Part shown: positions 11,432-46,302 of the stretch, piece by piece | Position numbering within the stretch: position 1 is the first letter of the stretch | Layout: each line of letters starts with the position of its first letter | NCBI GenBank assembly: GCA_041649575.1 | Contig: JBAZMW010000004.1 | Coordinates: 21,687-85,686 of the forward strand | Origin: Patescibacteria group bacterium | Lineage (GTDB): Bacteria; Patescibacteriota; Patescibacteriia; 2-01-FULL-39-33 | Length of the DNA stretch: 64,000 nt | Direction: 5' to 3' | Program-made: the position numbers and the translations under genes | The notes under the pieces: model-generated | Database searches by the model: none | Seen by the model: only the letters and a program-made list of their open reading frames with translations | Told to the model about the DNA's origin: nothing

Positions 11432-11899
11432 ATGTCCAATAGGCATCTGGCCAGAACTTTGGCCATTCAAACCCTCTACCAGTGGGATTTCAACGGACAA
11501 AAGGAAGATGTTTTGCAAATTATGGAAAAAAATCGCCAGGAATTCGCTCCCGAATTCGATGACGGCGGTTTTATTAAACATTTGATTGAAGGAATCAAAA
11601 GCAACCTAAAACAAATAGACGCTCTAATCACCAAATTCGCTCCGGAATGGCCACTGGAGCAAATCACTATTGTTGACCGCAACGTCTTGAGGCTGGGCAC
11701 TTTTGAACTGAAGTTTGATGAGAGCATTCCGGCCAAAGTGGCCATTAATGAGGCGATTGAGCTGGCCAAAACTTTCGGCGGGGAATCCTCGGGTAAATTT
11801 GTTAATGGCGTTTTGGGAGCGGTCTACAAAGAAATCGGCGAAAAAGAAATTGACAAGCAAAAGAATTTGCAGCCAGACAATAAATTAGCCGCTAGTTAA
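11432..11899 (+). CDS. nusB: transcription antitermination factor NusB
   Basis: [17 protein letters not shown] is the NusB N-terminal signature. Confidence 0.85.
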
Positions 11900-11905
11900 A
11901 CAATC

Positions 11906-12613: not shown

Positions 12614-12626
12614 TAACAAAACAAAT

Positions 12627-13661
12627 ATGGATTTAGAATCTCTTTTACAAAAAGCGGTGGGACAAGAAGCTTCTGATTTTCATCTGATTGCCAATCTCCA
12701 ACCCTTTATCAGAATCGATGGGGAATTAAAACAACTAGATAAAAAGATATTTGAACCGAAAGAAATAGAAATTTTAGTCAAAAGAATCATCAGTGAACAA
12801 CAACTAAAAAGATTTTTAGTGGAGAAAGAATTGGATTTTGCTTATGAAACTTCCGACGGTTATCGTTTCCGTATAAATTTACACTTGGAAAAAGGCAATT
12901 TTGGCCTATCAGCCAGAGTGATTCCAAAAGAAATACCTTCAATGGAAGATGTGGACATGCCCGAGACCGTCTATCGCCTATGCGGTTTGGAGCGAGGGCT
13001 GATTATCGTCACCGGCCCGACCGGCTGCGGCAAATCCACGTCGCTGGCGGCAATGATTGATTACATAAATGAGAATCGCAATGTTAATATCATTACTTTG
13101 GAAGACCCGATTGAATTTCTCTTCAAGCCGAAAAAAAGTATTGTCCGCCAAAGACAACTAGGTTCCGATATGCTTTCCTTTCAAAACGGCTTGACTCATG
13201 TCTTGCGCCAGGACCCAAACGTGATCATGGTGGGAGAGATGAGAAACCTAGAAACTATCGCCGCCACCATCACTCTGGCGGAAACCGGACACCTGGTCTT
13301 TGCCACCCTGCACACCTACAGCGCCTCCCAAACCATCGACAGAATCATCGATATTTTTCCTCCTCACCAACAAAACCAAATCCGCATGCAAATATCCATC
13401 ACCCTGCAAGGCATCATCTCGCAACGACTGATTCCACGTGCCGATCATGGCCGAGTGGCCGCCCGAGAAGTGCTTCTTAATACGCCGGCGGTAGCCAACA
13501 TGATCAGAGAAAATAAAATTGCCCAAATCAAAACCGCCATCCAGACCGGCGCTAAGGAAGGCATGGTCACTATGGATAATTATCTTCTGAATCTATTTCA
13601 AAACGGCATAATTTCCAAAGAAACCTTCAATAACAATATTTCGGCCATACCAAAAGAATAA
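12627..13661 (+). CDS. pilT: type IV pilus retraction (twitching motility) ATPase PilT
   Basis: Walker A GPTGCGKST and an Asp box; PilT/PilU-like length (344 aa). Confidence 0.8.
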   Translation: MDLESLLQKAVGQEASDFHLIANLQPFIRIDGELKQLDKKIFEPKEIEILVKRIISEQQLKRFLVEKELDFAYETSDGYRFRINLHLEKGNFGLSARVIPKEIPSMEDVDMPETVYRLCGLERGLIIVTGPTGCGKSTSLAAMIDYINENRNVNIITLEDPIEFLFKPKKSIVRQRQLGSDMLSFQNGLTHVLRQDPNVIMVGEMRNLETIAATITLAETGHLVFATLHTYSASQTIDRIIDIFPPHQQNQIRMQISITLQGIISQRLIPRADHGRVAAREVLLNTPAVANMIRENKIAQIKTAIQTGAKEGMVTMDNYLLNLFQNGIISKETFNNNISAIPKE

Positions 13662-24634: not shown

Positions 24635-24709
24635 AGCGGGTAACGGGAATCGAACCCGTATTTCCACCTTGGAAGGGTGGCATAATAACCATTATACTAT
24701 ACCCGCGCT
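24635..24709 (-). tRNA. tRNA-Gly (anticodon UCC)
   Basis: Minus strand: GCGGGTA ... CCACC-CTTCCAA-GGTGG ... ACGGGTTCGATTCCCGT-TACCCGC-T. Confidence 0.8.
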
Positions 24710-24723
24710 TATTTGCTTCTTGG

Positions 24724-24794
24724 TCGGGGTGCGGAGAATTGAACTCCGGCTACATGCACCCCATGCATGCGTACTACCGTTATACTACACCCCG
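24724..24794 (-). tRNA. tRNA-Pro (anticodon GGG)
   Basis: Minus strand: CGGGGTG-TA-GTATAACGGTAGTAC-G-CATGC-ATGGGGT-GCATG-TAGC-CGGAGTTCAATTCTCCG-CACCCCG-A. Confidence 0.8.
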
Positions 24795-24837
24795 TAAAAC
24801 TAATTTATTGTATACTTAATAAAAAATGTCTCGTTAT

Positions 24838-24880
24838 GTCGGGGTGACAGGACTTGAACCTGCGACCTCTTACTCCTTCA
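24838..24880 (-). pseudogene. tRNA-like 3' fragment (T-arm + acceptor 3' strand), 3' half of an outer tRNA-like gene enclosing tRNA-Pro(UGG)
   Basis: Minus strand: TGAAGGAGTAAGAGGTC-GCAGGTTCAAGTCCTGT-CACCCCG-ACA; no D or anticodon arm immediately upstream. Confidence 0.55.
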
Positions 24881-24896
24881 CCCTGTTAAATAATTG

Positions 24897-24970
24897 TCGG
24901 AGTAGTGGGATTTGAACCCACGATCTCCTGCTCCCAAAGCAGGCGCGATAGCCAGCTTCGCTATACTCCG
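24897..24970 (-). tRNA. tRNA-Pro (anticodon UGG)
   Basis: Minus strand: CGGAGTA-TA-GCGAAGCTGGCTATCGC-G-CCTGC-TTTGGGA-GCAGG-AGATC-GTGGGTTCAAATCCCAC-TACTCCG-A. Confidence 0.8.
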
Positions 24971-24979
24971 GTAATTTAA

Positions 24980-25021
24980 CAGGGCGAGAAGCAAGCGCTC
25001 TAGCCAACTGAGCTACACCCC
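24980..25021 (-). pseudogene. tRNA-like 5' half (acceptor + D-arm + 5' strand of a long helix), 5' half of the outer tRNA-like gene
   Basis: Minus strand: GGGGTGT-AG-CTCAGTTGGCTAGAGC-G-CTTGCTTCTCG-CCCTG; acceptor GGGGTGT is complementary to CACCCC at 24843-24848. Confidence 0.55.
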
Positions 25022-25088
25022 GTATTAAAACAAACAATCAACAACGATGAGCGCATTGTCAATTGCAAATCGTTAACTGTTTTGAGTA

Positions 25089-25160
25089 TGCCGAGGGCGA
25101 GAATCGGACTCGCGACACAAAGATTTTCAGTCTTCTGCTCTACCACTGAGCTACCTCGGC
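25089..25160 (-). tRNA. tRNA-Phe (anticodon GAA)
   Basis: Minus strand: GCCGAGG-TA-GCTCAGTGGTAGAGC-A-GAAGA-CTGAAAA-TCTTT-GTGTC-GCGAGTCCGATTCTCGC-CCTCGGC-A. Confidence 0.85.
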
Positions 25161-25235
25161 TCTCACCTCGCCGTAGCCGATAGGCGAAAGCGGGTTAAAC
25201 TTTTATCAGTCCGCCTTCGCTAAAGCTACGGCGGA

Positions 25236-25300
25236 CACTGTGCGCATACCTGGATTTGAAGTCTGGACCTTCCCGATATATCGGGACGCTCTAATTAAAT
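25236..25300 (-). pseudogene. partial tRNA-Ile-like copy (D-arm end, variant anticodon arm, T-arm, acceptor 3' strand)
   Basis: Minus strand: TTAGAGCG-TCCCGATATATCGGGA-AGGTC-CAGACTTCAAATCCAGG-TATGCGC-A; matches the 3' two-thirds of tRNA-Ile(GAU) except the anticodon arm. Confidence 0.55.
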
Positions 25301-25527
25301 CCTCTAGATACTTTCGCGACTTCATTCTTTTTAAACAACTCTCTCTTCTGATTGCCTCTTTTTTGTCCTCGTATTCTTCATGATAGACTAATTTTTAAGG
25401 CTTTTTATTGCTGGTGTACCGGCCTGTAGAGCTATTATGCTGGCGAATTCTCTTTTCCAAATCAGAAGAGTAACCAATATAGTAGCTACCATCTCTTTCG
25501 CTTTGCAAGATATAAAGGCAATGCATG

Positions 25528-25601
25528 TGCGCATACCTGGATTTGAACCAGGGACCTCGTCATTATCAGTGACGCGCTCTAACCAACTGAGCTATATGCG
25601 C
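25528..25601 (-). tRNA. tRNA-Ile (anticodon GAU)
   Basis: Minus strand: GCGCATA-TA-GCTCAGTTGGTTAGAGC-G-CGTCA-CTGATAA-TGACG-AGGTC-CCTGGTTCAAATCCAGG-TATGCGC-A. Confidence 0.85.
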
Positions 25602-27098: not shown

Positions 27099-28577
<1,479 letters not shown>

Positions 28578-28869
28578 AAAAAATTTGCAACTAGATTACG
28601 GCCAGTTGCCAACCGTATGAAACATTGCTTCGCTAGAAAGCGAAGATGCTTTGTTCAAAGAAAAATAACTTGGGCTTACGCTTTTTGTCACTTTTTAGTT
28701 GTCAAATTGCCTTTTTCCTCCGCTTTCAAGCGGAAAGAAAAAACAGAGGGATCCGATTTGGCGAACTCTCGTTTCAGGCGAGAATTCTGTCAGATACCAC
28801 TGTTTTCCCTCAAAATCTAAATTTTAGGAATTTTTTAAGAATGTTTTGTGCTTATTAGTCTGCCCTATT

Positions 28870-29771: not shown

Positions 29772-30140
29772 GGTAATTTTATTATATACTAATTTATTAT
29801 TCTTTCATAACTGAAAAAGTTTTTTAAATCGTGAACCTCTTATTTGCTTACTTTTTCATATCTTAGAAAAGAAAAAGCTAACAAAAAGAAAAGTCGCGAG
29901 CTATTTGATAAATTCAGACAAAATCTGGCGCCAGTTTCGCTAGGCCATAAAGTCGCTACGCTCCAGTTATGGCCTTTCCGCCTAAAAGGCGGAACCGCTC
30001 AACTGACTTGATTTTGTGGCTGAATTTTCAAGCGCTCGCAACAGCTATTTCTAAACCAAATTTTCATGGGCTCGCAGAAATAATCCTGAAAACAAAACCC
30101 TCCCGGTTCATCGGGAAGGTTTTGTTTTATTGTGATGGTT

Positions 30141-30638: not shown

Positions 30639-31064
30639 TTAGGCGCTGGGAGTGTCTGCTGAAGCGGCTTCTGCCGGCGCGGCTGTTTCGGCTTTCTCTT
30701 GAGCCTGCTTGGCGGCTTCGGCTTCGGCTTTCTTGGCGGCGTCGATAGTGGCTTTCTCTTGAGCCTTTTGAGCAGCTAGGGCCGCCTGTTTTTTCTTGCC
30801 GGGCTGCGACTTGGAGGCTCTGACTTTCTTGTCTTTGATAATCCCTTGGCTGACCAGTAGATTGTGAACCGTCGAGGTAGCTTGAGCTCCTTGCTTTAGC
30901 CAATACAAAATTCTGTCATTTTTTATCTGACTTACTTTGGTCTTAGGGTTATAAGAACCCAGGTTTTCTAAAAATTTACCCCAGGGATCACGGGTTTTTT
31001 CGGTGACAATCAGCCGATAAAGCGGCTGTTTTTTCTTGCCAACGCGAGATAGTCTGATTGATAA
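30639..31064 (-). CDS. rpsP: 30S ribosomal protein S16 with Ala/Lys-rich C-terminal extension
   Basis: MLSIRLSRVGKKKQPLYRLIV is the S16 signature. Confidence 0.85.
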   Translation of the reverse strand, partial: LSIRLSRVGKKKQPLYRLIVTEKTRDPWGKFLENLGSYNPKTKVSQIKNDRILYWLKQGAQATSTVHNLLVSQGIIKDKKVRASKSQPGKKKQAALAAQKAQEKATIDAAKKAEAEAAKQAQEKAETAAPAEAASADTPSA

Positions 31065-31288
31065 CATTATTTGTTGCTGATTAATTCTTAATTTCTGAGC
31101 ATTGAACGGTAAAGTTATGCTACTATATTTTACAAAAAAAGTCAATTAACCTTATTGGATTAATATATTTTATAACCAGCTTTTACAAAAAAAGGGCCAG
31201 CGATACGAGATCACTGTCCCTTGGAAAATCGCGGCCGAAGGCCAAGGATTCAATCCAATGGCCAAGCGGCCGAAAACCGAAGTCCAGA

Positions 31289-32251
31289 CTACCCGAGGCA
31301 GAACACCGACGCCGAATAGTCGTCGCTGGCATACGACAGATAGTCGGTGTAGTCGAAGTTCGCATAGGAATCGTAGGCGAGGAAGCGGAGCGAGTAGGAC
31401 TGCCACTGAAGAGCCGGGCAGCGCACTATTGGTGTCTTGGCGTCTCGGCAGAGCTCCTTGGCATAGGCCATGTAAGCCACTGCCGTGTCCAAGCCGCCGC
31501 CCAAGAGCATCCATTCGGGAATCTGGGCGGACAGTTCATGCCCGACGAAGGTCTCGCGACAAGCGTCGACGCTGTAACCGCCGAAAGGCAGAAGCGTGAC
31601 GCCGACAACCGGTTCTTTGGCCAAGGCGGCGAGCAGACACTCGTGCCGACTGCCGGCTACGATGCTGACCTCGCCGGCCAAGTCGGTTTCACGGTAGTTC
31701 GTGAACTTCCTGCCCTCGGCCTCGAAGGCTTCCTCATAAGCGCTCCTCACCCCGTCGACAAAAAGCTTCAAGGTGGCGCCGTAGCCACCTTTGTCCTCCG
31801 GCAGAATCGTGCCCGCTGGCAGAACAGTCGGCAGCCAAATGCCTTTGACGGCATTGGCCGTGCGAGGATCGCCCGCCAGCCTGGTGATAGTGGCCTTGGC
31901 TCGTACTTCGAATTCCTCGGCCGACGGCAAGCTGAGCGCCTCGGCTTTGACTCGCAGTCCGATGGCCAGATGCCGACGGACGCGCTCGAGGATCTCGCCG
32001 TAGTTGATCGAGGGTTGGTTGACGTAATACGCGCCAGCGTCGCAGAACGCAGCTTTGAGTCCGGGAAACGGAATGAAGCGGCTGTTCTTGTCGAACAGCT
32101 TACGGACGGTCTCCTTGATCTCCGCGGTCATTTCGTGACGCAGCAGCGCCTTGACGACATTGACGCCGCCAAGCTGGTTGCCAAGCGCCACCCAGTGGGT
32201 ATGTGGCAGGTCGTCCAGTGTTTCCAGTTGATCAATGTTAAAGTCCTTCAT
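31289..32251 (-). CDS. hypothetical protein D (320 aa) of GC-rich island
   Basis: RBS AAAGGAG; strong promoter TTGACA-17-TATAAT at 32363..32335; about 60% GC; no recognisable domain. Confidence 0.5.
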   Translation of the reverse strand: MKDFNIDQLETLDDLPHTHWVALGNQLGGVNVVKALLRHEMTAEIKETVRKLFDKNSRFIPFPGLKAAFCDAGAYYVNQPSINYGEILERVRRHLAIGLRVKAEALSLPSAEEFEVRAKATITRLAGDPRTANAVKGIWLPTVLPAGTILPEDKGGYGATLKLFVDGVRSAYEEAFEAEGRKFTNYRETDLAGEVSIVAGSRHECLLAALAKEPVVGVTLLPFGGYSVDACRETFVGHELSAQIPEWMLLGGGLDTAVAYMAYAKELCRDAKTPIVRCPALQWQSYSLRFLAYDSYANFDYTDYLSYASDDYSASVFCLG

Positions 32252-32334
32252 CTTGCGCTCCTTTCAGCCCATGGCCGAAATGGCTTTTCCCCTACCCGAG
32301 GATTGGGAACAGTCCTACGCAGGACCATCAGACT

Positions 32335-32363
32335 ATTATACTAAATAAAAAATAATCTGTCAA
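32335..32363 (-). promoter_or_regulatory. consensus sigma70 promoter (TTGACA-17-TATAAT) on minus strand
   Basis: Minus strand: TTGACAgattattttttatttagTATAAT in the AT-rich spacer upstream of gene D. Confidence 0.6.
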
Positions 32364-32520
32364 TACTAACAAATTATTTAAAGTTAAATAAAAACTTCCT
32401 CATCTGTCCGGCCAAGCTTCTTGAATGAGATAGAAACTATCTCAAACAAGAAGAAGAGAGAGTTTGGCCGGACGAATGAAGAAGCTTTAAAAGTATTCCT
32501 CAAAACTTGTAAAAAAGATT

Positions 32521-32569
32521 TGCAAGTTTAGTTGGAAGGAGAAGCTGACAAACCACATCAGCTTCTCCC
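32521..32569. repeat. island repeat, short copy 3
   Basis: TGCAAGTTTAGTTGGAAGGAGAAGCTGA-caaaccaca-TCAGCTTCTCC: 11-bp perfect hairpin plus the CCAGTTGGAAGGAG-like core. Confidence 0.6.
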
Positions 32570-32593
32570 AAAACCATCTACCGATCAAGGCCG

Positions 32594-33451
32594 CTAGGCC
32601 TTGGCGATGACGGCGCGAGTTGCCTCAACCGCCGCCACGACGTCGGCCAGCATCATGCGCTGACCGCGGGGACTGCCGGCGATGCCCGCGTGCCCGCCGG
32701 CCGCCTCGCCCCAAAGCCCCTGCACGATCTCTCGTGCCGAGACTCCGGGGATCGGGTCGGCGATAGACACTGTCACCGCACCGGTGACTGTGTTGAAGGC
32801 GACAACAGCTTTCGCCAAGTCGCCTTCCGGGTCGACGTACAGATGGCTGACAAACGTGTCCGCCACCCGCACTGCCACCCCGCCGCCAGCCTCGACGAAC
32901 GATTGCGCATTCAGCGCGACCTCCGCCGAGCGGAACGCCTCGCCCGCCGCGAGAAGTTCCGGGTCGTCAGCGCAAATGCGCTCAACGACCCTGACGGCCT
33001 CCATCACCTGCTCGGTGACTTCGGCCGCGCTGCCGTCGCGCGGGGGCAGGCAGCGGTGACCGTTGCTCCACGCCCAGAAAGCGTAGAGCCGGACGATGTC
33101 GGCTGGCTCGGCGCCGGCTTGGCCTAGCTTGTGCGGACCGTTGAGGTCCACAAAAGCTGCCAGGAGCCAGAATCCCGGCGTCTCGGGCTTGCGACCGAGA
33201 ACGGCCGCACAGCCGCCGACGGAATCGAGATCAAGGTGGGAAAGTCCCACCGCCTCGACTTCACCAGCCGCGCCGTTGTCGGCGAGGCAGGGGGCGGGGT
33301 TGCCCGCCCGCGGCCCGTGATGGGCCAGGGTTGCGACGGACCCGGCGACACACTCGTCGCCGAATTCCGCCTCAACCGAAGCGGTCAGGCCGAAGGGGGC
33401 GAGGACGGCGGCCAATGCGGCCGCATGGTTTGAAATAAAAAACTTCGTCAT
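32594..33451 (-). CDS. hypothetical protein C (285 aa), about 68% GC; faint DHH/DHHA1-like motifs (HLDLDSVGG ... AAGGHAGIAGSP)
   Basis: RBS AGGAGA 7 nt upstream of ATG; longest frame in the region; the motif resemblance is weak and unverified. Confidence 0.45.
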   Translation of the reverse strand: MTKFFISNHAAALAAVLAPFGLTASVEAEFGDECVAGSVATLAHHGPRAGNPAPCLADNGAAGEVEAVGLSHLDLDSVGGCAAVLGRKPETPGFWLLAAFVDLNGPHKLGQAGAEPADIVRLYAFWAWSNGHRCLPPRDGSAAEVTEQVMEAVRVVERICADDPELLAAGEAFRSAEVALNAQSFVEAGGGVAVRVADTFVSHLYVDPEGDLAKAVVAFNTVTGAVTVSIADPIPGVSAREIVQGLWGEAAGGHAGIAGSPRGQRMMLADVVAAVEATRAVIAKA

Positions 33452-33560
33452 GGCTTATCTCCTCTCTCGGAGTTTCAGCGCGCCACGCGCTGTGCCTCTC
33501 TCTGGTTTATCAAACCCTGCAAGCGAGAGACAAACTGGCAACTCCGCGCCGACAACCGGT

Positions 33561-33724
33561 GCAGAGTTTTTTCCTCAAGCCCCGCAAACTCACATTGTTT
33601 GCGAAGCCAGTTGGAAGGAGGAGACAGAAAAACCACTCTGACTCCTCCGGATAACCTTGTTTGCGTTTGTAACGAGGCCGCCGCCTCCGATTGTTTGACC
33701 TCTAACAATCGTAAAGGAGTGTTC
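33561..33724. repeat. island repeat, long copy 1 (164 nt, multi-hairpin)
   Basis: About 96% identical to 34422-34585; contains the TGCGAAGCCAGTTGGAAGGAGGAG core plus hairpins GGAGGAGACAGA/TCTGACTCCTCC, GCAAAC/GTTTGC and CGATTGTT/AACAATCG. Confidence 0.75.
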
Positions 33725-33762
33725 AGATTAAGGCCTAACACACAAGGTCTTTCTGGCGTGAC

Positions 33763-34333
33763 CTACTCGGACAGCGTGATGATCAGGTCTTTGACCTGAT
33801 CATCACGCTCAGACCAGACGGCGTTGGCTGGCTTCTGCCACCACCGCTTCTTCGGTGCGCCCCATTCGGCGGCGCATTCAGCGAAGTGGCTGCAATCCCC
33901 CCCCGAATCCGCGCAACAGAGCGCGTAATACGCGGCTAGCGCTCGGCGTTCGGCCGCGATACCAGAGGAGGAGCAGCAGAAGGCAGCGACGTCACCCGCT
34001 ACCTTTTTCGCCCGGGCGAGTTGCTCCGGAGAACTTACATTCTCCAGATAACCGCGGGCCCACTCTTCAACATCCGCGATGTCGCACATCGCGGCATGCT
34101 GCGCTACGATCCTTCTGGAAACGCGCACAGCCCACTTATTCGCTAGCTCCTTGGCTAGCGAATAAGAGGCGAGGCAAATGATTTCGTAGCTTGAAAATTT
34201 CCACGAAATCAGAGCATCCACGTCCTCCCTCCTAAACTCATTGCCCGCCCCATACCAGCGGCGGGCCACTTCTCTTTCGCATTTAGGAAAGCTCCTGAGA
34301 GCTTCCCTCAGGGTTCTGTACCTTTTCAAGTTC
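33763..34333 (-). CDS. hypothetical protein B (190 aa) of GC-rich island
   Basis: RBS GGAAAGGAGAGAGAG-ATG; the longer upstream frame is an artefact of running into repeat copy 2. Confidence 0.5.
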
Positions 34334-34421
34334 ATCTCTCTCTCCTTTCCGGATGTGGCCGAGATGTGGCCGGTCCCCTCGGAAACTACCATATATCCAA
34401 AACTCCGCACCGACCATCGGC

Positions 34422-34585
34422 GCAGAGTTTTTTCCTCAGGCCCCGCAAACTCACATTGTTTGCGAAGCCAGTTGGAAGGAGGAGACAGAAAAACCACTCT
34501 GACTCCTCCAAATAACCTTGTTTGCGTTTGTAATGAGGCCGCCGCCTCCGACTGTTTGACCTCTAACAATCGTAAAGGAGTGTTC
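34422..34585. repeat. island repeat, long copy 2
   Basis: Near-identical to 33561-33724. Confidence 0.75.
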
Positions 34586-34717
34586 TAATTAAGCTCTTGC
34601 GAGCCGGCCTAACACACAAGGCCGTTTGCCCATGATTTTACGCGGATGGCTTCTGCCCTTGACACGGGCCAAGGACTTTACCGCAACCGCCGAAGCGGGC
34701 TGTGAGGACGCCGAAGG

Positions 34718-35206
34718 TTACTTGGCTTTCGGCATCCCCGGCAGCTCCTGGAGCTGTCGGATGAAGGGGCCGACGATGTCGGCCACCTCCGAACGGAAGC
34801 ACGTTTGTGCTTCCATCGCGCACTCGCAGTCACCAACGGCGATTGCGAATGGAGGAAGGGGAAGTTCCACCGCCTCTTCCGGCAGTGAAACTTCCACCTG
34901 CAGAGGATATTCTCCCCCACAAATGTCTTCTGCCAATACCTGAATATGATCCAGGTAACCGCCCACGCTCACGTAGCGGCGAAACTCCGCCGCCACACTC
35001 GACACGCCCACCGAATATGAAACGGCGAACGTGCCCGACCGGGAGGATAGGCTAACCTCCATCCCGGCCTTCGTAAGAATGACGTACCCGCCATCATTAC
35101 GACCCACCTTCCACCCCGCTGCTACTGCAGCGGAGATGGGAATATTCCCTTCCCGCGGCCAGTTCGACCGCAGAAAAGACTTAACCCCTTCAGAATAGAA
35201 ACTCAT
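34718..35206 (-). CDS. hypothetical protein A (162 aa) of GC-rich island
   Basis: RBS AAAGGAGATAAGTT-ATG; no recognisable domain. Confidence 0.5.
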   Translation of the reverse strand: MSFYSEGVKSFLRSNWPREGNIPISAAVAAGWKVGRNDGGYVILTKAGMEVSLSSRSGTFAVSYSVGVSSVAAEFRRYVSVGGYLDHIQVLAEDICGGEYPLQVEVSLPEEAVELPLPPFAIAVGDCECAMEAQTCFRSEVADIVGPFIRQLQELPGMPKAK

Positions 35207-35404
35207 AACTTATCTCCTTTCACAGAGATCTCGGCCTGCCACAGGCCGTGTCCGCGAGGATCGACAATCCTCTTTTTTCGTCTCATGACGGCGGACAAAT
35301 TACTGCCAGTACCGCACAATGCGGCGCTGGTTTTTTCTATGCTTACCAGCCGCTGACCCAAGTCAGCTGCTAGGAATTTCCTCAGACTTCACGGACAACA
35401 GGCC

Positions 35405-35450
35405 TGCGAAGTCAGTTGGAAGGAGAAGCCGAGACTCGCCCGGCTTCTCC
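35405..35450. repeat. island repeat, short copy 4
   Basis: TGCGAAGTCAGTTGGAAGGAGAAGCCG-agactcgcc-CGGCTTCTCC. Confidence 0.6.
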
Positions 35451-35547
35451 AAAATCAATCATGAATAAATATTTAATTTATTTATCTCTTAATTTTTTAT
35501 TCAGTTGTCAAAATACTTCTTGTCTTAGCTTCTCACCATATGCTCCC

Positions 35548-35624
35548 GTAGCCCGAAGCGCCTTGTTTCTTATAACTCGGGATTGCCGCGGTCGCCCGCC
35601 TCTGGCGGACTCCCTCGCAATGAC
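35548..35624. mobile_element. intergenic copy of the MITE-like element (degenerate 5' end)
   Basis: CGGGATTGCCGCGGTCGCCCGCCTCTGGCGGACTCCCTCGCAATGACA matches the 3' halves of the cca and polA copies. Confidence 0.6.
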
Positions 35625-36349
35625 AGTTACGAAAGGCGTTTTACTAATCAAGACGGTTCTTCCAACCAACGGGTGGTTAATCTGTTGATTGGAAATGTCT
35701 GTCTCGAATAGATAGACATTTGGCAAAGGAGTTGCGATCCGAGAGGCTGACGCTAACAAGCATGCGGCGCCAGACCTCGAGCCGGACAGCTATCCAACAA
35801 CCGTCACTCTAACGGTGGTTTGTTGCCCTATGAGTGATATTTAGCGAGGCGAGGATTTCTCTCTTCGATAGTCCTGGCTTCGCCAAACATTTTAAGGTGC
35901 TTGAGTTTAAAGTGCTGTTCCCAACTCTCTCTTTGGGAAGGCCGGGTTCAGAAGTGACAAGCTCTTCCGAGGCCCGGCTCTCCCGCCCGATCTAGAAAGT
36001 TTCAAAAAACTCTCAACCGGGCGGAGAGAGCTTCGAGGTGCTTCCTTTTTCTATTGGTCGCCGCCCTCTCTCCTTGGCGGCTTCCAAATCCAGTAAGGAA
36101 GCAATTGACTTTTTATTTAATGTTCTCTGGTCGGCTATCTTTTTCCTGTTTTCAGCTTACAAACCCATTATATCATATATAACAAATATTGTCAAGCATA
36201 TATGACTAAAAATTTAGAATTTATTATTATTTTCCTAAATTTATTAAAATATATTATCTAATTTATAATACTATTTTGTCACAAAAATTTGACATTTAAA
36301 TATTATGGGTGTATAATGAAAGTATCTATTTAATAAATCAACAAAGAAT

Positions 36350-37138
36350 ATGTACAAACAGTCATTAACTCAGGCCGGGCTGACCGAAGAAATGGCCCAA
36401 ATTTATGAGGTTTTGCTGAAAAACGGGCCACAAAATGCTGGAAAATTAGCCAAAAAAACCGGCTTAAAACGCGGTTTGGTTTACAAAACACTGGATCGCC
36501 TGTTAGAAAAAGGGTTGCTAGAAAAAAACGAGGCCGACAAAAAGGTGTCCCTATTTTCCGCCAATCATCCGCTAAAATTGCAAGAAATAGTAGAAACCAA
36601 GCAGCAAAGGGCAAAAAACGCCGCTTTGGCCCTGGATGGTGTTTTGCCAGCCCTGGTTTCCGACTACAACCTGCTAAGCGGCAAGCCAGAAGTTCTCTAT
36701 TTCGAAGGCGAGGAGGGTCTAAAAAAAATTGCTTTCGATTCCCTGTCGGCCAAAACGGAAATACTGCAATATATAGACAACGAGGCAGCCAATAAATATT
36801 GGCCAAATCTTAATGAGGAATATGTAAAAAAAAGAAAGGGCCTGGGCATTAAAAAACGCATGATTACCATTGACAGCGAGTTTATCAAAAAAAATAAAGC
36901 CAAGTACGATCGCAGTATTACCGATATTCATCTGATAGACGGAGAGCGCTACCCCTTTGCCACCTCCATGCAGATTTATGACAATAAAGTAAGCCATGTC
37001 ACTTTGAGCCAGAATAAAAAAATCGGCTTTCTCATCGAAGATGCCGAGATTGCTGGAATGCATCGGACTATTTTTGAGTATATGTGGGAAAAAACCAGTC
37101 CACTTTTTGAGCCTCAAACCGCCGCGGCCAATGATTGA
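36350..37138 (+). CDS. TrmB-family transcriptional regulator
   Basis: N-terminal wHTH (AGLTEEMAQIYEVLLKNGPQNAGKLAKKTGLKRGLVYKTLDRLLEKGLL) and a TrmB-type C-terminal domain. Confidence 0.65.
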   Translation: MYKQSLTQAGLTEEMAQIYEVLLKNGPQNAGKLAKKTGLKRGLVYKTLDRLLEKGLLEKNEADKKVSLFSANHPLKLQEIVETKQQRAKNAALALDGVLPALVSDYNLLSGKPEVLYFEGEEGLKKIAFDSLSAKTEILQYIDNEAANKYWPNLNEEYVKKRKGLGIKKRMITIDSEFIKKNKAKYDRSITDIHLIDGERYPFATSMQIYDNKVSHVTLSQNKKIGFLIEDAEIAGMHRTIFEYMWEKTSPLFEPQTAAAND

Positions 37139-39414
37139 GGCTGGGCGGCCAAATCGTTTCTCTCAATCACAACAAATTTTTCGCCGGCAATTTCCGTCTC
37201 GCCCACTTCCTTGAAACCGAACCGACTTTTATAAAAATCCAGCAGTTCCGGCCGGCGACCGTAAACAACCGCCTCAATAATATTTTCCCGGGCCGCCGAG
37301 TCAATGACTTCTTTGATCATGGCATTGCCGATTTTAAAACCCTGGGCTTCGGGACGAACATTAAAGGAGGCGGCATAGAGCCGGTTTTGGCCGCGCGGCT
37401 CCAGACGCAGAAAACAAATAATTTTTCTGTCATATCTAAGAATGGTAAAAACCGATTGAGACTTGGCAGAACCTTCTTCTGGGGAAACCGCCTCTTCAAA
37501 ATCACTAGAAACTTCTCTAAGCAGCTCTTCGGGGTAATCCTCTCTGTTGGCCAAAAAAATTCTAATCATCTCCTCTTTTTCCGAGGGCAAAAGATCGGCT
37601 GGCTGCCTGGTCTCCATACTAACCTTGGCCGCCTCTTTGAAATCAATCTCTTCTCCGGCTTCCAATAAAGCCCTGAAAGAAGCGGCGAACAGCAAAACGT
37701 CCGCTTTAATACTATCCATCTGGTCCAGAATTTCTGATGCCTCAAAACCGCGAGCTGCCTTCAGACAAAAATCATTTAAAACGTCCCTACCTCGAGACAA
37801 CAGGCTTGAGCGCACCTTATCTAAAACATCACCAGGAATATTTCTGCCAAACTCTTTGGCCACCAGCTCTATTGTCTCATCGGCTGTCTCGATGATTTCG
37901 ACATACTTGGCAAAAATTTTTTCCGCCACGGCTGGCGGCAACCTTTCGCCTAACTCCAGAATCTTGTTACCCATTTCTTGACCATATTCACAGGAAAGAA
38001 AAGTCTTAAATCCAGTCAAACCAAACCGAGAGGCAAACCGCCTAACTGGCTCCATTTTAACAGAGGACATGGTCTTAATGAATTGCAAAAAATGAAACTG
38101 CTCCCTCAGGGACAGGTTTGATAAATCAATATTTAGCTCTTGGCCTATTTTTTCACGCATGGATTTTTTTGACATCCACTTAAAATCCACCAATGCCTCT
38201 TCCCGCTGCCTACTCTCATCTTTGGAGCGACTGGCGGGTATAAAAACATCGGTGACAGACAATTTCCTGGAAAAAAAAGACTCTAACGACCTAAAAAGTT
38301 GGTTACGCTCGTACAGTAAGGCTGAGTCAGGACTAAAAAATACTTCTGTTTCGCCATTGGCTATCGCTAAATCAATTAAGTGCTGGGGAGGACGAATTTT
38401 ATCTTCAATAGAATCTATCTCTTGATTTAAACGGCAAATTTCATCAAAGTCTGACTCATCAGCGACATAAAGACCATGACGAGATTCCCAAGCGTAAATT
38501 CTGCCACTTAAAATAAAAGGTCGACGATTATTGTGCCTTGACTCTAGTAGTTCACCTTTTTCAAAATGGTTATATATTTCCTGAGCTCGCATTTTTAAAA
38601 AATAACTGCCCTCGTTTTTTTCTATGGCTTCCTTTAAAACCATTATAACTTTAGAGCCAGCTTTCTCGGAAAAAGAATAGTCCTGAGAAACCTCACATAG
38701 CCTCCTAATAAACTCTAAAAAAACAGCGGTACGAGAAAAATTCTTACTATTGGAAAAATCTAAATTATCAACTAAAACCTGATCATAAAGTTCGCTAAAA
38801 AAAGAATAGGCGTAGTTTAAACCATGCAGAACCTCGCTCTCCAAATCCGCGTCAGTGTCTGGCCGACAAATTAAATCCACTAAGCCTTCTATAAAAATGT
38901 CTGGGCGTATTGTCTGGGGATCCTGAAAAAGATACTGAAAAAATTTTCTACTAGCACTCGGGCTCTGGTGGTGAGTTTTAATAACAGCTTTAAAGGTCTT
39001 GTCAGCTATAGATTCATCTTTGGAGCCGTCCCTTTTAAAATCTCCGTGAAGCTGAAGCGCGCAATTCAAGTCCATCGCCAGAAGATCTTGCTCTGCCTCT
39101 GGCCTATCCTCGATTAAGGATAAACCCCTACTAATTATCGCCTCTACTATCTCTGGTGGCAATAAGTGTCTCTGACTATTTTGCTCTAATTCTGGCAGTA
39201 GCTTCTTAAAAAAATAGTCAAATGGCAGGGAATTAATTAAAACCAGTGCCTGATTTTTTTTAGTCTGATCTACAGGGGTTGTTTCTTGTCTATCCGCTAT
39301 AGATAGCAACAAACCCCTGCCCACCAAATAGTCAAACAAATTTTCTTCAAATTTTGACTCTTTTTGATCAGAACTTGCTTCAGCTTTATTTGCTATTTTT
39401 TTTTCGCCTTCCAT
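37114..39414 (-). CDS. large hypothetical protein (766 aa) with C-terminal GNAT acetyltransferase domain
   Basis: C-terminal about 150 aa show GNAT motifs (IIEAVVYG ... FYKSRFGFKEVGE); lies 4 bp downstream of smc on the same strand. Confidence 0.55.
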   Translation of the reverse strand: MEGEKKIANKAEASSDQKESKFEENLFDYLVGRGLLLSIADRQETTPVDQTKKNQALVLINSLPFDYFFKKLLPELEQNSQRHLLPPEIVEAIISRGLSLIEDRPEAEQDLLAMDLNCALQLHGDFKRDGSKDESIADKTFKAVIKTHHQSPSASRKFFQYLFQDPQTIRPDIFIEGLVDLICRPDTDADLESEVLHGLNYAYSFFSELYDQVLVDNLDFSNSKNFSRTAVFLEFIRRLCEVSQDYSFSEKAGSKVIMVLKEAIEKNEGSYFLKMRAQEIYNHFEKGELLESRHNNRRPFILSGRIYAWESRHGLYVADESDFDEICRLNQEIDSIEDKIRPPQHLIDLAIANGETEVFFSPDSALLYERNQLFRSLESFFSRKLSVTDVFIPASRSKDESRQREEALVDFKWMSKKSMREKIGQELNIDLSNLSLREQFHFLQFIKTMSSVKMEPVRRFASRFGLTGFKTFLSCEYGQEMGNKILELGERLPPAVAEKIFAKYVEIIETADETIELVAKEFGRNIPGDVLDKVRSSLLSRGRDVLNDFCLKAARGFEASEILDQMDSIKADVLLFAASFRALLEAGEEIDFKEAAKVSMETRQPADLLPSEKEEMIRIFLANREDYPEELLREVSSDFEEAVSPEEGSAKSQSVFTILRYDRKIICFLRLEPRGQNRLYAASFNVRPEAQGFKIGNAMIKEVIDSAARENIIEAVVYGRRPELLDFYKSRFGFKEVGETEIAGEKFVVIERNDLAAQPQSLAAAV

Positions 39415-42395: not shown

Positions 42396-43235
42396 ATGGC
42401 AATATCCGCCAACAATGGCGCCAACTCAATGCCAGCGCCGCTACTAGAAAGGCAGGAAGCGGTACTTAAGTTCTTTCCCAACAGAAAGCCGTCATCCAGA
42501 CTTGATAGCAGCCCGTCTATCTCTGGACACGAAGGCATCGTGGTCTTTCCTGACAAGGAGCTTGGGCGAGCGATCGCTTCACAATGCTTGGTTGGCAAGA
42601 GTCTGCAGATCATGCTACAAGTCTACAAAACCGCAAGAGGGACCCACGTCTGGACCGCCAGCAAACACCCCCGAAAGAATCTGGTACTTCAAACCGCCGA
42701 CCTTGGCGGAAAAGAAGTGGCGGTCATCATCGACGGGCAAAACCTGCTGGGGTCCATGAGACGACTCGGGCTGAAGTCAATGGTTGACACTATTAGCAGG
42801 GTTCTGCGACCATTCAGGCCGAAGCTTATCAATCTTTACCTGGGAGCCAACGACCTTATACAACTACTTCCCGCTGACAGGACAGCACTCCATTCCGGCG
42901 CAAGGATTGGTGAAACGCAGTTGACACTCTTCACTGTGGAGACTCGGCGCGTGGCCGACGATAACGGTACCAGAATGAAGAACAATATCGACGGCAGTAT
43001 ACTGCCGATCCTGGGAGAGCTGACAAACGACAGATCTTGCGAAGGCCTAATACTCTTTACGGGCGACAAGGATTTCAGCACCGGCGTGGAGCTTTGGATG
43101 GGTATTGGCGAACAATCACACCGCCCGGGCAGACCGGCCATTGTGGTCTCGGCCGATCCCATGCTTAGCACCGAACTGCGAGAGGCCATGAACCACCCCA
43201 GAGGGAACCTGATCTTTTTGGAAGACCTGTGTTGA
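42396..43235 (+). CDS. NYN/LabA-like PIN-domain protein
   Basis: VAVIIDGQNL and ILFTGDKDF blocks typical of NYN domains; RBS GGAGGAGGG; about 54% GC. Confidence 0.55.
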   Translation: MAISANNGANSMPAPLLERQEAVLKFFPNRKPSSRLDSSPSISGHEGIVVFPDKELGRAIASQCLVGKSLQIMLQVYKTARGTHVWTASKHPRKNLVLQTADLGGKEVAVIIDGQNLLGSMRRLGLKSMVDTISRVLRPFRPKLINLYLGANDLIQLLPADRTALHSGARIGETQLTLFTVETRRVADDNGTRMKNNIDGSILPILGELTNDRSCEGLILFTGDKDFSTGVELWMGIGEQSHRPGRPAIVVSADPMLSTELREAMNHPRGNLIFLEDLC

Positions 43236-43401: not shown

Positions 43402-46302
43402 ATGACAAACAAAAAACAGAGGCTGGTTATCGTTGACAGCAATGCTCTGATTCATCGCGCTTTCCATGCCTTGCCACCACTCTCCAACAAAGAAGGCCAA
43501 TTGACCAATGCGGTCTATGGCTTCACTATGATTTTAATCAAAGCCATCAAAGACTTAAAACCAGATTATTTGGCTGCCTGCTTTGATTTAAAAGGCAAAA
43601 CTTTCCGCCACGAGGCCTATGATCAATACAAGGCCACCAGGATAAAACAGCCCGACGAACTCTACCAGCAAATTCCCATCGTCAAAGAGGTTTTAGAGGC
43701 TTTCAAAATTCCTGTTTTCGAAAAAGAGGGGCTGGAAGCCGACGATTTAATCGGCACCATCGCTCACTTAAAATCTGTTGACCGTCCGGACATCGAAACC
43801 ATTATCGTCACCGGCGACCAAGACACTCTGCAGCTTGTCGACTATAATACCAAGGTGCTAACGCCGCATAAAGGCATGAGCGAAACCATCCTTTATGGCG
43901 AGGATGAGGTAAAAGGAAAATTCGGCGGCCTGGAGCCCAAACAACTAATTGATTATAAAGGGCTACGTGGCGACGCCTCTGATAACATTCCAGGAGTCAG
44001 GGGTATTGGTGAAAAAGGAGCCATTGAACTTTTGCGAGAGTTTGGCAGCGTGGAGAATGTTTACAAAAACATTAAATCCAAAAAAATTAAAGAACGAACG
44101 CGCGAGCTGCTTTTGGCCAACAAAGACACGGCGCTATTATCGAAAAGGCTGGCGACCATAGTTTTGGACGCTCCGATAAAATTCGAATTGGAAAACTGCC
44201 GCTTTAGCGGCTTTGATAAAAATGCCGTGGTAGATATTTTTCAAAAATTAAACTTCAAACGACTACTGGCGCAACTAGCCACACTTTTAAAAAATGACCC
44301 TGCGACAACAATAGGGCAAGGAAATTTATTTTCCCAGATGTCATTCCGAGGAGTCCAGTCATTACACCGACTAGACGACGTTGGCCTGCCTGCCGGCAAG
44401 GCAGGGATCCCGTCTAATATTGAAAAAGATGGGATTGCCGCGGTCGCTCCGCTCCCTCGCAATGACAATAAAAAAATCGGCCGGCAAAATTATCAGTTGG
44501 TTGATGAGGAAAAAACCGCCAAAAAATTCTTAACTGAACTGAAAAGGCAGCGCGAGTTTTGTTTTGATACCGAAACCACCGGACTGGATCCTTTTCAGAA
44601 CAAACTACTGGGAATCAGTTTTTGTTGGCAGGAAGGCGAGGCTAGTTATTTGACAGTCAGGATTATTAAAAACAATCTTAAAGAGCTAAAAAAAATATTT
44701 GAGAACAAAAATGTAAAAAAAATCGGCCATAATCTAAAATATGATATTGAGATTTTGGAAAAAAGCGGCCTAAAGACCAATAGGCTTCACTTCGACACCA
44801 TGATCGCTTCCTATGTTTTGAACCCCGGCGGCCGCCAGCATAATTTAGACACGCTGGCTTTCGTTGAACTGGGATACCAAATGCAACCGATAGAGGAGTT
44901 GATCGGCAAGGGACGAGGCCAAATATCCATGGCCGAAGTGCCAATAGACAAAGTTTGTTGGTATTCTTGCGAAGATGCCGATCTGACTTTTAGACTGTAC
45001 CAGAAACTGAAGCAAGAGCTGGGTGAGCAAGGCACGGAGGGCCTGTTGGAAAACCTGGAAATGCCGCTGGTGGAGGTTTTGGCGACAATAGAAACTAACG
45101 GCGTTAAAATTAATGACAAAATTTTAAAAAAATTAAGTGATGATTTCGCCAAAAAAATTTCTGCCATAGAAAAAAATACCTGGAAGCTAGTTGGAGAAAA
45201 ATTCAATTTGGCCTCGCCGTTACAATTAAAACAAATACTGTTTAAAAAACTAAAAATTGACGGGGCTGGGCTGGCTAAAACAAAAACTGGCATTTCCACC
45301 GGCGCGGCAGAACTGGAAAAACTGGCTGCTTGGTTCAGAGAAAACAAGGCGGACGAAAAAAAACTCAAGGTTATAAATTTACTTCTTGAATTTCGCGAGT
45401 TATCAAAATTGAAATCAACTTATCTGGACGCCTTGCCGGCTCTAATAAATAAGGTTGACGGCCGGGTCCATACCAGCTTTAACCAAACCGTGACAGCCAC
45501 CGGTCGCCTATCGTCCAGCGAGCCAAACCTGCAAAATATTCCTATTCGCACAGAAACTGGCGGACCAATAAGACGCGCTTTCATCGCCGAGCGGGGCTAC
45601 AAAATAATGAAAGCCGACTATTCGCAAATCGAATTGCGTATTGTCGCCTCACTGGCCAATGACAAAAAAATGTTAAAAATTTTTGAGAGCGGCGGCGACA
45701 TTCATACCAGCACCGCGGCTTTTATCCACGGCATCAAACCCGAAGAGGTGACCAAAGAAATCAGGCGTACCGCCAAGGAAGTTAATTTTGGTGTCCTCTA
45801 TGGCATGGGTGCCTGGGGGCTCTCGCAACGCACCGGCATTTCCAACACGGAAGCGCAAAAATTTATCAGCAAATACTTTTCTACTTTTAAAGAAGTGAAA
45901 AAATGGCTGGATGAAACCATTGAGCTTGCCAAAGAACGCGGCTACGTGGAAACGCTTTACGGCCGCCGGCGCTACTTACCGGAAATCAATTCGGGCGTCA
46001 GCCAGGTACGCAGCGGCGCCGAACGCATGGCGGTCAACATGCCCATTCAGGGCACAGCCGCCGACTTAATAAAACTAGCGATGATCAAAATTCATAAAAA
46101 TTTGCCCCATATCAGCCCTAAAGCCAAAATAATCCTGCAGGTGCATGACGAGTTGGTTTTTGAGGTGCCGGAAAAAGACATTAAAAAAGTGGCAAAGTTT
46201 GTCAGGGAAAAAATGAGCTCGGTCATTAGGTTGCGCGCTCCGATTGAAGTAGAGGTCTCCGCCGGCGACAATTGGGGTGAGACCCGGGAAATAAATTTAT
46301 GA
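43402..46302 (+). CDS. polA: DNA polymerase I
   Basis: 5'-3' exo (LVIVDSNALIHRAFHA), 3'-5' exo and pol motifs A/B/C (DYSQIELRI, KEVNFGVLYG, QVHDELVFE); in-frame repeat insertion in the exo-exo linker. Confidence 0.9.
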   Translation: MTNKKQRLVIVDSNALIHRAFHALPPLSNKEGQLTNAVYGFTMILIKAIKDLKPDYLAACFDLKGKTFRHEAYDQYKATRIKQPDELYQQIPIVKEVLEAFKIPVFEKEGLEADDLIGTIAHLKSVDRPDIETIIVTGDQDTLQLVDYNTKVLTPHKGMSETILYGEDEVKGKFGGLEPKQLIDYKGLRGDASDNIPGVRGIGEKGAIELLREFGSVENVYKNIKSKKIKERTRELLLANKDTALLSKRLATIVLDAPIKFELENCRFSGFDKNAVVDIFQKLNFKRLLAQLATLLKNDPATTIGQGNLFSQMSFRGVQSLHRLDDVGLPAGKAGIPSNIEKDGIAAVAPLPRNDNKKIGRQNYQLVDEEKTAKKFLTELKRQREFCFDTETTGLDPFQNKLLGISFCWQEGEASYLTVRIIKNNLKELKKIFENKNVKKIGHNLKYDIEILEKSGLKTNRLHFDTMIASYVLNPGGRQHNLDTLAFVELGYQMQPIEELIGKGRGQISMAEVPIDKVCWYSCEDADLTFRLYQKLKQELGEQGTEGLLENLEMPLVEVLATIETNGVKINDKILKKLSDDFAKKISAIEKNTWKLVGEKFNLASPLQLKQILFKKLKIDGAGLAKTKTGISTGAAELEKLAAWFRENKADEKKLKVINLLLEFRELSKLKSTYLDALPALINKVDGRVHTSFNQTVTATGRLSSSEPNLQNIPIRTETGGPIRRAFIAERGYKIMKADYSQIELRIVASLANDKKMLKIFESGGDIHTSTAAFIHGIKPEEVTKEIRRTAKEVNFGVLYGMGAWGLSQRTGISNTEAQKFISKYFSTFKEVKKWLDETIELAKERGYVETLYGRRRYLPEINSGVSQVRSGAERMAVNMPIQGTAADLIKLAMIKIHKNLPHISPKAKIILQVHDELVFEVPEKDIKKVAKFVREKMSSVIRLRAPIEVEVSAGDNWGETREINL
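44340..44466 (+). mobile_element. MITE-like element inserted in frame in polA linker (effective about 126 bp)
   Basis: TIRs GTCATTCCGAGG ... CCCTCGCAATGACA; internal hairpin CCTGCCT/AGGCAGG; 3' half GGGATTGCCGCGGTCGCTCCGCTCCCTCGCAATGACA shared with the cca and intergenic copies. Confidence 0.65.

Follow-up and report, generated by a model that had tools for sequence, protein, structure and literature searches.

The closest described counterparts of the locus reported here are integrons and CALINs (clusters of attC sites lacking integrases), in which a promoter-proximal array of co-oriented, mostly orphan acquired open reading frames (ORFs) is split by a recurrent structured repeat, the content varies between relatives and, as in sedentary chromosomal integrons, the repeats within one array are near-identical. 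Structured elements also lie between the cistrons of the phage T7 early region, as RNase III processing and stabiliser hairpins. The Candidate Phyla Radiation (CPR) makes up a large share of bacterial diversity; its members have tiny genomes and live on other microbes, and how they acquire accessory genes is poorly understood. We analysed a 64,000-nucleotide stretch of contig JBAZMW010000004.1 from a Patescibacteria group bacterium (the whole stretch is called the window, and positions are numbered from its first letter). In it, four GC-rich genes, here A to D, lie on the minus strand next to a divergent gene for a TrmB-family regulator, and all the integron-like properties just listed are found at this locus. 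With moderate confidence, we read the region as a regulated cassette array that recurs in the CPR and whose RNA-punctuated genes are horizontally acquired and probably related to conflict.

The regulator, the promoter, the leader and the intergenic frames of such loci are constant, and the ORFs between the frames vary even among close relatives and are mostly orphan. In the window, the array and its regulator are laid out as follows, in the direction of array transcription.

36350..37138, plus strand: gene for a TrmB-family winged-helix regulator of TrmBL2 size, 262 aa (Pfam TrmB, 7.9e-12)
36289..36317, plus strand: TrmB gene promoter, arranged back to back with that of the array (12/12 consensus)
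36167..36195, minus strand: array promoter, TTGACA-17-TATAAT with an extended -10 TG (12/12 consensus)
35455..36160, minus strand: structured non-coding leader, ~0.7 kb, no convincing ORF (fold -244 kcal/mol, z = -6.2)
35375..35454, minus strand: RNA motif copy 1, upstream of A (covariance model R1, 86.8 bits, E 2e-20; fold z = -3.3)
34718..35206, minus strand: cassette gene A, 162 aa, ORFan; ribosome-binding site (RBS) AAAGGAGA; GC at codon positions 1/2/3 0.63/0.46/0.64
34401..34626, minus strand: repeated intergenic unit, ~225 nt, holding motif copy 2 and 94% identical to 33540-33752 (fold z = -5.1)
34429..34513, minus strand: RNA motif copy 2, between A and B, inside the repeated unit (covariance model)
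33763..34335, minus strand: cassette gene B, 190 aa from the ATG behind GGAAAGGAG, ORFan; AGGAG-type RBS
33540..33752, minus strand: second copy of the repeated intergenic unit, holding motif copy 3 (fold z = -5.4)
33568..33652, minus strand: RNA motif copy 3, between B and C, inside the repeated unit (covariance model)
32594..33451, minus strand: cassette gene C, 285 aa, divergent DHH/DHHA1-fold phosphoesterase, the sole cargo common to several arrays
32493..32572, minus strand: RNA motif copy 4, after C, closing the array (R1, 88.4 bits; fold z = -4.9)
32391..32488, minus strand: long hairpin with UUUUUAUUU after it, where the array transcript probably terminates (inverted repeat; -55 kcal/mol, z = -8.5)

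The same layout, with a TrmB gene, a divergent consensus promoter, a structured leader (1–2 kb long in the other loci) and a GC-rich array, was found in at least seven other CPR loci. A TrmB orthologue stands divergently upstream of the arrays in the loci L001/L013, L003/L005, L012, L021, L160 and L176, and a consensus TG-extended promoter lies 110–180 nt from the TrmB start in all five of the TrmB-linked loci examined. In L001/L013, L003/L005, L012 and L021 the TrmB gene is divergent from C behind a gap of 1–2 kb, the repeated order being a large protein containing a GNAT or methyltransferase domain, the TrmB gene, the non-coding gap and then C on the opposite strand. Where the L013 island starts, GC jumps from 43% to 60–68% over 9 kb. 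Rather than an isolated insertion, the island is one instance of a TrmB-promoter-leader-array platform conserved in several CPR lineages. The large protein itself, encoded at 37114-39414 in the window, converges with the TrmB gene and has homologues in L003, L012 and L021; its N-terminal region of ~600 aa is poorly conserved and its C-terminal enzymatic domain is swapped, being GNAT in the window and a SAM-methyltransferase in L001 and L003. Domain searches with this neighbour found the GNAT domain only.

Scanning metagenomes for the invariant core of the motif, together with the covariance model, brought out three further TrmB-linked arrays.

L160 array: TrmB gene, ~1.9-kb leader, then motif, 218-aa ORF, motif, 126-aa ORF, motif, C, motif
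L212 array: begins within the promoter region of the TrmB gene; contains four motifs with three small ORFs and lacks C; the next genes are rpmF-nusB-rnc
L176 array: TrmB gene and five motifs

A later covariance model, R2, built on 20 copies (R1 being the earlier one), also detected the motif six times in L018 (Paceibacteria) and three times in L001/L013. Comparison of all sense-strand ORFs of 17 arrays or loci with one another linked only the C genes and one weak pair, so that C is the one cargo shared among them. Between L160 and L212, nucleotide similarity covers patches of the leader and the frames, each frame being made up of the motif with ~40 nt on its 5' side and ~130 nt on its 3' side, up to the RBS; it halts where the ORFs begin. 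The window compared with L160 gives a like pattern. The relationship between cargo and regulator is equally uneven: L013 and L012 have TrmB proteins that are 20% identical and C genes that are 86% identical in protein and 85% in nucleotide sequence, with the similarity restricted to the coding sequence (CDS), whereas L012 and L021, with the most similar TrmB proteins (41%), have C proteins only 43% identical. This mismatch indicates that C moves between distant hosts into the same kind of slot, the frames being host- and array-specific. This suggests homogenisation of the frames inside each array, to which the 94% duplicate in the window points as well. Thus, the C family has been exchanged horizontally between very different CPR hosts; it is also carried by large phages and, in Firmicutes, occurs in type III CRISPR loci. 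Limited literature searches on GC-rich islands in the CPR, integrons and TrmB-linked defence found nothing relevant, and a prior description is possible.

The punctuating motif of ~80 nt stands upstream of A, in the A–B and B–C gaps, and downstream of C. The covariance-model E-values of these window copies range from 1e-20 to 1e-23, and there is no fifth copy in the 64 kb. A reading made earlier from the letters of this stretch alone, here the sequence-only reading, had placed a hairpin repeat in every intergenic gap, and the motif copies bear this out; the 3' side of D has none. In order, the motif consists of the P1 hairpin (~10 bp, with a purine-rich 5' strand), the 5' strand of P2 (4 bp), AACU, the P3 hairpin (~11 bp), UGA and the 3' strand of P2. 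The P2 helix abuts P1 directly and encloses an internal loop (5'-AACU / 5'-UGA) together with P3, and the P1 loop reads GUGGU in many copies. In the 14 copies from outside the window, 96.9% of the cells are paired and 21 of the 25 pairs show compensatory changes on both sides; the pairing is somewhat inflated by the model-fitted alignments. None of 500 shuffles reaches the observed values, and sliding the partners by 1–3 columns leaves 45–60% paired. Even allowing for the fitted alignments, P2 covaries cleanly between lineages as UUCC:GGAA, CACC:GGUG, CUUC:GAAG and UUUU:AAAA, and in L176 and L018 the structure of P1 is kept while its sequence is not.

Strand polarity gives a second indication of function. 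Over 20 copies, 96.4% of cells pair on the sense strand as against 86.5% for its complement, and the sense strand has 53 G-U and 6 A-C combinations. The G-U excess, together with the strict co-orientation of the motif with the genes, points to a function in the transcript, and it is most likely that the motif acts as RNA. At gathering score, Rfam 15 had no match in the window, nor in ten related loci, and at E<=5 over 31000-36400 it returned chance matches to miRNA, snoRNA and lncRNA only; the motif is thus a candidate new RNA family for which Rfam has no match. In 35 viral or phage loci that carry C the motif is absent, save for one marginal match (E 0.029). Scanning viral contigs for the pattern CCTTCCAACT-N-TGAGGAA gave 99 matches, consistent with chance when scored by covariance model. 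Readings of the conserved CUGA/AAC nucleotides as hammerhead, K-turn or attC were rejected by eye, the required partner sequences and stems being missing and no Rfam match being present.

The textbook promoter noticed in the sequence-only reading is real, a perfect TTGACA-17-TATAAT at 36195-36167 and one of three 12/12 sigma-70 promoters of the region, and lies outside the island as that reading had bounded it. From 36195, one long transcript would run through the leader, A, B and C and would end at the hairpin at 32488-32391, which, with its U-run, is a probable terminator. Gene D lies beyond this point, with signals of its own.

32335..32363, minus strand: separate promoter of D, just upstream of the gene (12/12 consensus)
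31289..32251, minus strand: gene D, 320 aa, GC-rich and stand-alone, from a small CPR family; own promoter, AGGAG-type RBS
31198..31216, minus strand: terminator-like hairpin and T-run after D

Since D has its own promoter, and the hairpin lies between motif copy 4 and that promoter, we read the region as two units, promoter-leader-A-B-C-terminator and promoter-D-terminator, rather than one island driven by one promoter; D would be the second transcription unit. Patches of the leader are conserved in L160 and L212, and the leader has no match to an Rfam family. The island had been described as abutting a MITE (miniature inverted-repeat transposable element) copy; the stretch 35455-36340 has no second copy in the 64-kb window and corresponds to the structured leader, which leaves that description unsupported. 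Neither is the motif dispersed in the manner of MITEs or repetitive extragenic palindromic (REP) elements, all four covariance-model matches in the 64 kb falling inside the array. The leader at 35579-35625 and the polA coding region at 44431-44467 have two neighbouring exact matches in common (17 and 16 nt), which may be due to chance or to a small duplicated fragment. As for the regulator, profile searches gave matches confined to the N-terminal domains of TrmB and TrmBL2 proteins, and the C-terminal domain showed no homology detectable beyond the winged helix-turn-helix.

The composition of the island sets it apart from its surroundings. GC is 0.55–0.70 over ~31250-35300, compared with 0.446 for the whole window and 0.42–0.49 for the flanking genes; the GC-rich island described earlier is therefore real, with an excess of 10–25 points where 20–25 had been claimed. 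The four minus-strand ORFs, which are co-oriented and each preceded by an AGGAG-type RBS just as first described, fill GC-rich blocks that are broken up by AT-richer intergenic stretches. In coordinate order (D/C/B/A), GC is 0.60/0.68/0.58/0.58 and GC at third codon positions (GC3) is 0.75/0.78/0.66/0.64; the latter range, 0.64–0.78, compares with 0.41–0.58 for host genes. The raised GC3 means that the excess lies at synonymous sites and is not due to amino-acid composition alone. At four-fold sites GC is 0.75 for cargo and 0.62 for host genes in the window, and across loci 0.75–0.89 for cargo and 0.45–0.62 for host genes. An adenine-specific mutational origin of the bias, of the kind produced by diversity-generating retroelements, was rejected, the A<T asymmetry at four-fold sites being equal in host genes. 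The persistence of GC3 at 0.7–0.98 in C genes that are 42–86% identical, in hosts of 40–50% GC, is the most puzzling property of these islands, and no tested model explains it fully.

In its deviant composition, in array content that differs in L160 and L212 and in the incongruent histories of C and TrmB, the locus has the marks of a horizontally acquired genomic island; mobility genes, a tRNA target and direct-repeat boundaries were not found in searches of the flanks and the window. The flanking genes are housekeeping genes (rpsP, trmD, SMC, PolA), and Pfam assigned ten flanking genes as TrmB, GNAT, SMC, NYN, PolA, holA, bactofilin, DAGK, YidC and DnaA. A chimeric contig, raised in the sequence-only reading as one way for the island to be spurious, is not what the assemblies indicate: independent ENA and Logan assemblies have the TrmB gene, the leader and gene A in identical order, and the ENA contig holds the entire island. 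The Logan contig, L281 (SRR8542065, a short-read assembly of the same organism), ends within the array, shortly past gene A, a break of which the repeated unit (225 nt, 94% identity) would be the obvious cause.

Gene C is the best-represented cargo. The four genes had been called orphans without a recognisable domain. The first part stands for A and B but not for C, whose family counts more than 569 proteins, nor for D, with 10 homologues; the second is correct in that A to D have no match in Pfam, PHROG, PADLOC or NCBIfam, but C has a DHH/DHHA1 fold. Faint DHH/DHHA1-like motifs had been picked out by eye, and the two-domain DHH + DHHA1 arrangement is found in C. Conventional profiles do not reveal this: C matched neither PF01368 (DHH) nor PF02272 (DHHA1) in Pfam, nor any NCBIfam model, and the family profile searched against PDB sequences found no DHH protein, only spurious lectin matches. 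The canonical order of DHH motifs I–IV is not kept either, since an invariant AHH precedes the HxDxD-like motif. We regard C as an unannotated DHH-like family and a candidate nucleotide-signal-degrading enzyme.

In CPR hosts of 39–53% GC the GC3 of C is 0.73–0.98, and the genome record of Shimazuella kribbensis DSM 45090, a strain from a culture collection, shows the gene as a single-gene GC spike (60% against 33%). In high-GC genomes it has native composition, being flanked in one of them (L232) by 2H-SAK and Peptidase_M78 genes. In AT-rich Clostridia its GC3 is 0.11–0.3. A 153-kb phage-like contig of 63% GC carries C together with a phage-type DNA polymerase (phrog_17, 1e-110), and the family occurs in 45 IMG/VR contigs, many of 100–300 kb. 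Phage C genes roughly track the GC of the phage, and the viral relatives nearest to the CPR genes are in phages of 58–68% GC. The sequence-only reading had allowed that the genes might have homologues that are GC-rich genome-wide; this is partly so for C, and the occurrence of members at native GC in high-GC genomes and phages points to a GC-rich source pool rather than to an artefact. A solitary C in L233 (8001-8852; GC 0.71, GC3 0.98) lies in a contig of ~50% GC, where a gene for a large serine recombinase (Resolvase + Recombinase + Zn ribbon) starts ~2.9 kb downstream.

The settings in which C homologues lie hint at, without establishing, a role in the turnover of nucleotide signals or nanoRNA during phage–host conflict. 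Homologues of ~35% identity in Lachnospiraceae (L033/L037) are placed between a reverse transcriptase-Cas1 gene with a CRISPR array and Cas6, and in the L013 island a Csx3-like gene and a bpMoxR-VWA pair are next to C. In L037 (8000-17000) and L033 (2800-11700), C is followed by a 767-aa tetratricopeptide repeat protein and two paralogous proteins of ~500 aa with weak similarity to CARF_Card1. No Cas10 or Cas7 was recognisable by Pfam in this block, which may represent a type III-like effector or accessory module of an unusual kind. In phage loci, no conserved neighbour of C was found beyond one clonal phage group. The window itself has no detected CRISPR array, and the ten flanking genes scanned with Pfam include no cas gene.

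The remaining genes are far more restricted. Searching 5.8 billion clustered proteins with A returned only A itself. An exhaustive HMMER search of 1.84 billion representatives with B returned B and one marginal match, and the sole other protein in the collection with the B sequence is a 168-aa version of it. The ten D homologues are all from the CPR or unnamed metagenomes, and in the two contexts that were read the gene is solitary, in unrelated settings. In the CPR contig L046 a D homologue (10001-13017) adjoins a diversity-generating retroelement module (bAvd and reverse transcriptase). The AlphaFold2 model of D (pLDDT 59) is too poor for a fold search. In the NCBI annotation, D, C and A are the hypothetical proteins WC518_03635, WC518_03640 and WC518_03650.

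Our preferred reading, a regulated and recurrent cassette array, is carried by the architecture, its recurrence, the RNA-type covariation, the variability of the cargo, and the mobility and fold of C; the function of the RNA and the cause of the high GC we infer. The TrmB protein would control the divergent promoters. In the messenger RNA, the motif would serve as an intercistronic processing or stabilising site, or both, as the structured target of a protein or RNase, and in this way every foreign ORF would have a stable message of its own, open to translation. With identities of up to 94% over ~225 nt, the repeated frames could supply the homology for gain, loss and swapping of ORFs and would be homogenised within the array. 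The cargo may be for conflict between genomes, defence or counter-defence, with C predicted to degrade short or cyclic oligonucleotides. The high GC (GC3 0.64–0.78 here, up to 0.98 elsewhere) would come from a pool of GC-rich donors, for instance phages or bacteria of high GC, and might be reinforced by GC-biased gene conversion at a recombination-prone locus.

Several observations weigh against this reading. The single transcript, its processing and the control by TrmB are predicted features of it, the role in defence rests on what surrounds distant homologues and on a small number of annotated cargo genes, and A, B and D offer no functional clue. The host four-fold sites in the window are fairly GC-rich (0.62), so that the contrast with the cargo is milder than in the other loci. 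Solitary GC-rich C genes occur in L008, L031 and L233 with neither platform nor motif, which indicates that the GC anomaly belongs to the gene and not to the platform. The motif model misses the C-containing GC-rich arrays of L012, L014, L005, L020 and L021. Two of these have array-specific hairpin repeats of their own, a 58-nt unit in 5–6 copies in L014 (9860-15540) and a 47-nt unit in 3 copies in L012 (8413-10290), so the punctuating element is not uniform; each of these repeats precedes a second helix that encloses further hairpins, and they may be divergent relatives of the motif missed by the covariance models. Finally, homologous recombination between frames cannot on its own explain transfer between lineages whose frames are unalignable. 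It is possible, though we put it forward tentatively, that the locus is an integrase-independent platform of the CPR for gene capture and expression, in which the TrmB gene, the promoter and frames with a new RNA permit ORF-precise swapping of foreign GC-rich ORFs of phage or host origin, and GC3 is kept high by the mechanism of capture or recombination rather than by recent transfer. The motif RNA would then be a processing site, a ribozyme or a guide for recombination.

Other explanations place the function of the repeat elsewhere. If it were a cis-regulatory RNA switch, riboswitch-like or titrated by a protein, it would gate translation of each ORF downstream of it through the polypyrimidine tract CUCCUUCC, which is complementary to RBSs of the GGAAAGGAG type. 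The unpaired AACU/UGA nucleotides are conserved and the helices covary, as is typical of RNAs that bind ligands or proteins, with GUGGU as P1 loop in many copies; the 3' strand of P1 and the 5' strand of P2 form a tract like an anti-Shine-Dalgarno sequence, every cassette has a purine-rich RBS, and the motif is always 5' of an ORF. However, the distance from motif to start codon varies widely (94, 117, 169 and 242 nt), one copy stands behind the last gene, with nothing but a terminator after it, and P1 in L176 and L018 is kept in structure but not in sequence, so that we find this explanation doubtful. An integron-like origin, as a cluster of attC sites whose recombinase is encoded elsewhere and whose repeat folds as single-stranded DNA for recombination, is unlikely. 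In its favour are the co-orientation of the mostly orphan cassettes, a repeat number one above that of the cassettes (n+1 for n), a strong upstream promoter and content that varies between relatives; an Xer-like tyrosine recombinase is encoded three genes from the array in L001/L002, and a large serine recombinase near the solitary C in L233. Yet the absence of an integrase noted by the sequence-only reading was confirmed with Pfam on the ten flanking genes and by phmmer, in which the Xer-like integrase found no match at E<=10 among all window ORFs, and no tyrosine recombinase homologue was found in the 64 kb. The repeat comprises two hairpins and a closing helix; by inspection there are no RYYYAAC...GTTRRRY inverse cores, its UUCCAAC pairs only through UUCC:GGAA and the 3' side reads YUGAGGAA. 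Whereas attC sites recombine via the bottom strand, here the G-U pairs are on the sense strand. The element also stays with the array: C moves between lineages with similarity limited to the CDS, and L160 and L212 have common frames around different ORFs. The integron-array-like appearance therefore does not extend to the repeat, which is not attC-like, folds on the sense strand and is probably RNA, and the integron reading fails three defining tests: the integrase, the anatomy and strand of attC, and the travel of the repeat with the gene.

Two further proposals treat the island as an intrusion. A decayed prophage or other integrated mobile element from a GC-rich donor, with hairpins that are terminators or REP-like and an incidental linkage to TrmB, would be in keeping with the foreign composition, the orphan cargo and the frequency of the C family in large phages, including GC-rich ones. 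We consider it improbable: integrase, structural, replication and att-like boundary features are all missing, the flanking genes are housekeeping genes, hosts with TrmB proteins no more than 20–40% identical share the TrmB-promoter-leader context, and the motif is missing from viral loci and covaries well beyond what simple terminators do. An artefact of assembly or binning, joining a GC-rich organism to a CPR genome, is very improbable indeed. The sharp GC steps and the metagenome-assembled source genome could suggest one, but AT-rich, host-like segments (promoters, motif, terminator) are interleaved in the island, the order of the TrmB gene, leader and A is shared by the ENA and Logan assemblies, the architecture is found in many independent samples, and the GC spike of C is present in the S. 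kribbensis record.

Some observations concern the rest of the window. A 16S rRNA gene at 27101-28583 has no adjacent 23S gene, and a cluster of five tRNA genes (24635-25601) lies 1.5–2.5 kb from it on the same strand. Between SMC and polA, a 279-aa protein (42396-43235) has a weak NYN ribonuclease domain, just under the Pfam cut-off (E 5.5e-05). A 51-nt repeat containing a hairpin (AAAACCCTTCC...GGAAGGGTTTT) is present at 432-482 and 30078-30128, the copies being 78% identical and 29.6 kb apart, with one of them within the region of a KH-domain gene near the rpsP-trmD cluster; the repeat has the appearance of a shared terminator or a small dispersed repeat.

The locus thus yields a candidate RNA family backed by covariation, and a recurrent, regulator-linked array of strain-specific orphans that is integron-like in logic and not in machinery. 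A family with GC3 of 0.7–0.98 inside genomes of 40–50% GC bears on amelioration, on GC-biased gene conversion and on gene flow between phages, hosts and episymbionts, and the C family, with its >569 members, is linked to phages and to type III CRISPR loci.

Returning to the known systems, the island differs from integrons and CALINs in having no IntI, in a repeat that lacks the R- and L-box anatomy of attC, folds on the sense strand and belongs to the array and not to the mobile gene, in the TrmB-type regulator next to it and in a leader of 0.7–2 kb before the first cassette. Like the T7 RNase III sites and the REP elements and bacterial interspersed mosaic elements (BIMEs), its motifs are structured elements with internal loops between the cistrons of a strong-promoter transcript, and are plausible sites of cleavage or 3'-end protection; unlike them, they have a two-domain architecture with invariant loop nucleotides and are confined, within the window, to the array, and processing is here something we infer. 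Gene C stands apart from the described DHH/DHHA1 phosphoesterases (NrnA, the TM1595 phosphodiesterase, PggH, GdpP, RecJ and the CRISPR-associated NrN) in that AHH comes before HxDxD, in its length of only 285 aa, and in that neither the Pfam models nor the family profile detect the link. With defence islands and other hypervariable islands the locus shares a deviant composition, strain-specific orphan cargo and occasional conflict genes (Csx3-like, bpMoxR-VWA, helicases); it departs from them in its ordered single-strand array, uniform RNA punctuation and dedicated regulator and promoter, and in having neither mobility genes nor a tRNA attachment site. We conclude that the island is a member, and probably a variant, of the hypervariable cassette-type islands, with a candidate new RNA family and an unannotated DHH-like family.

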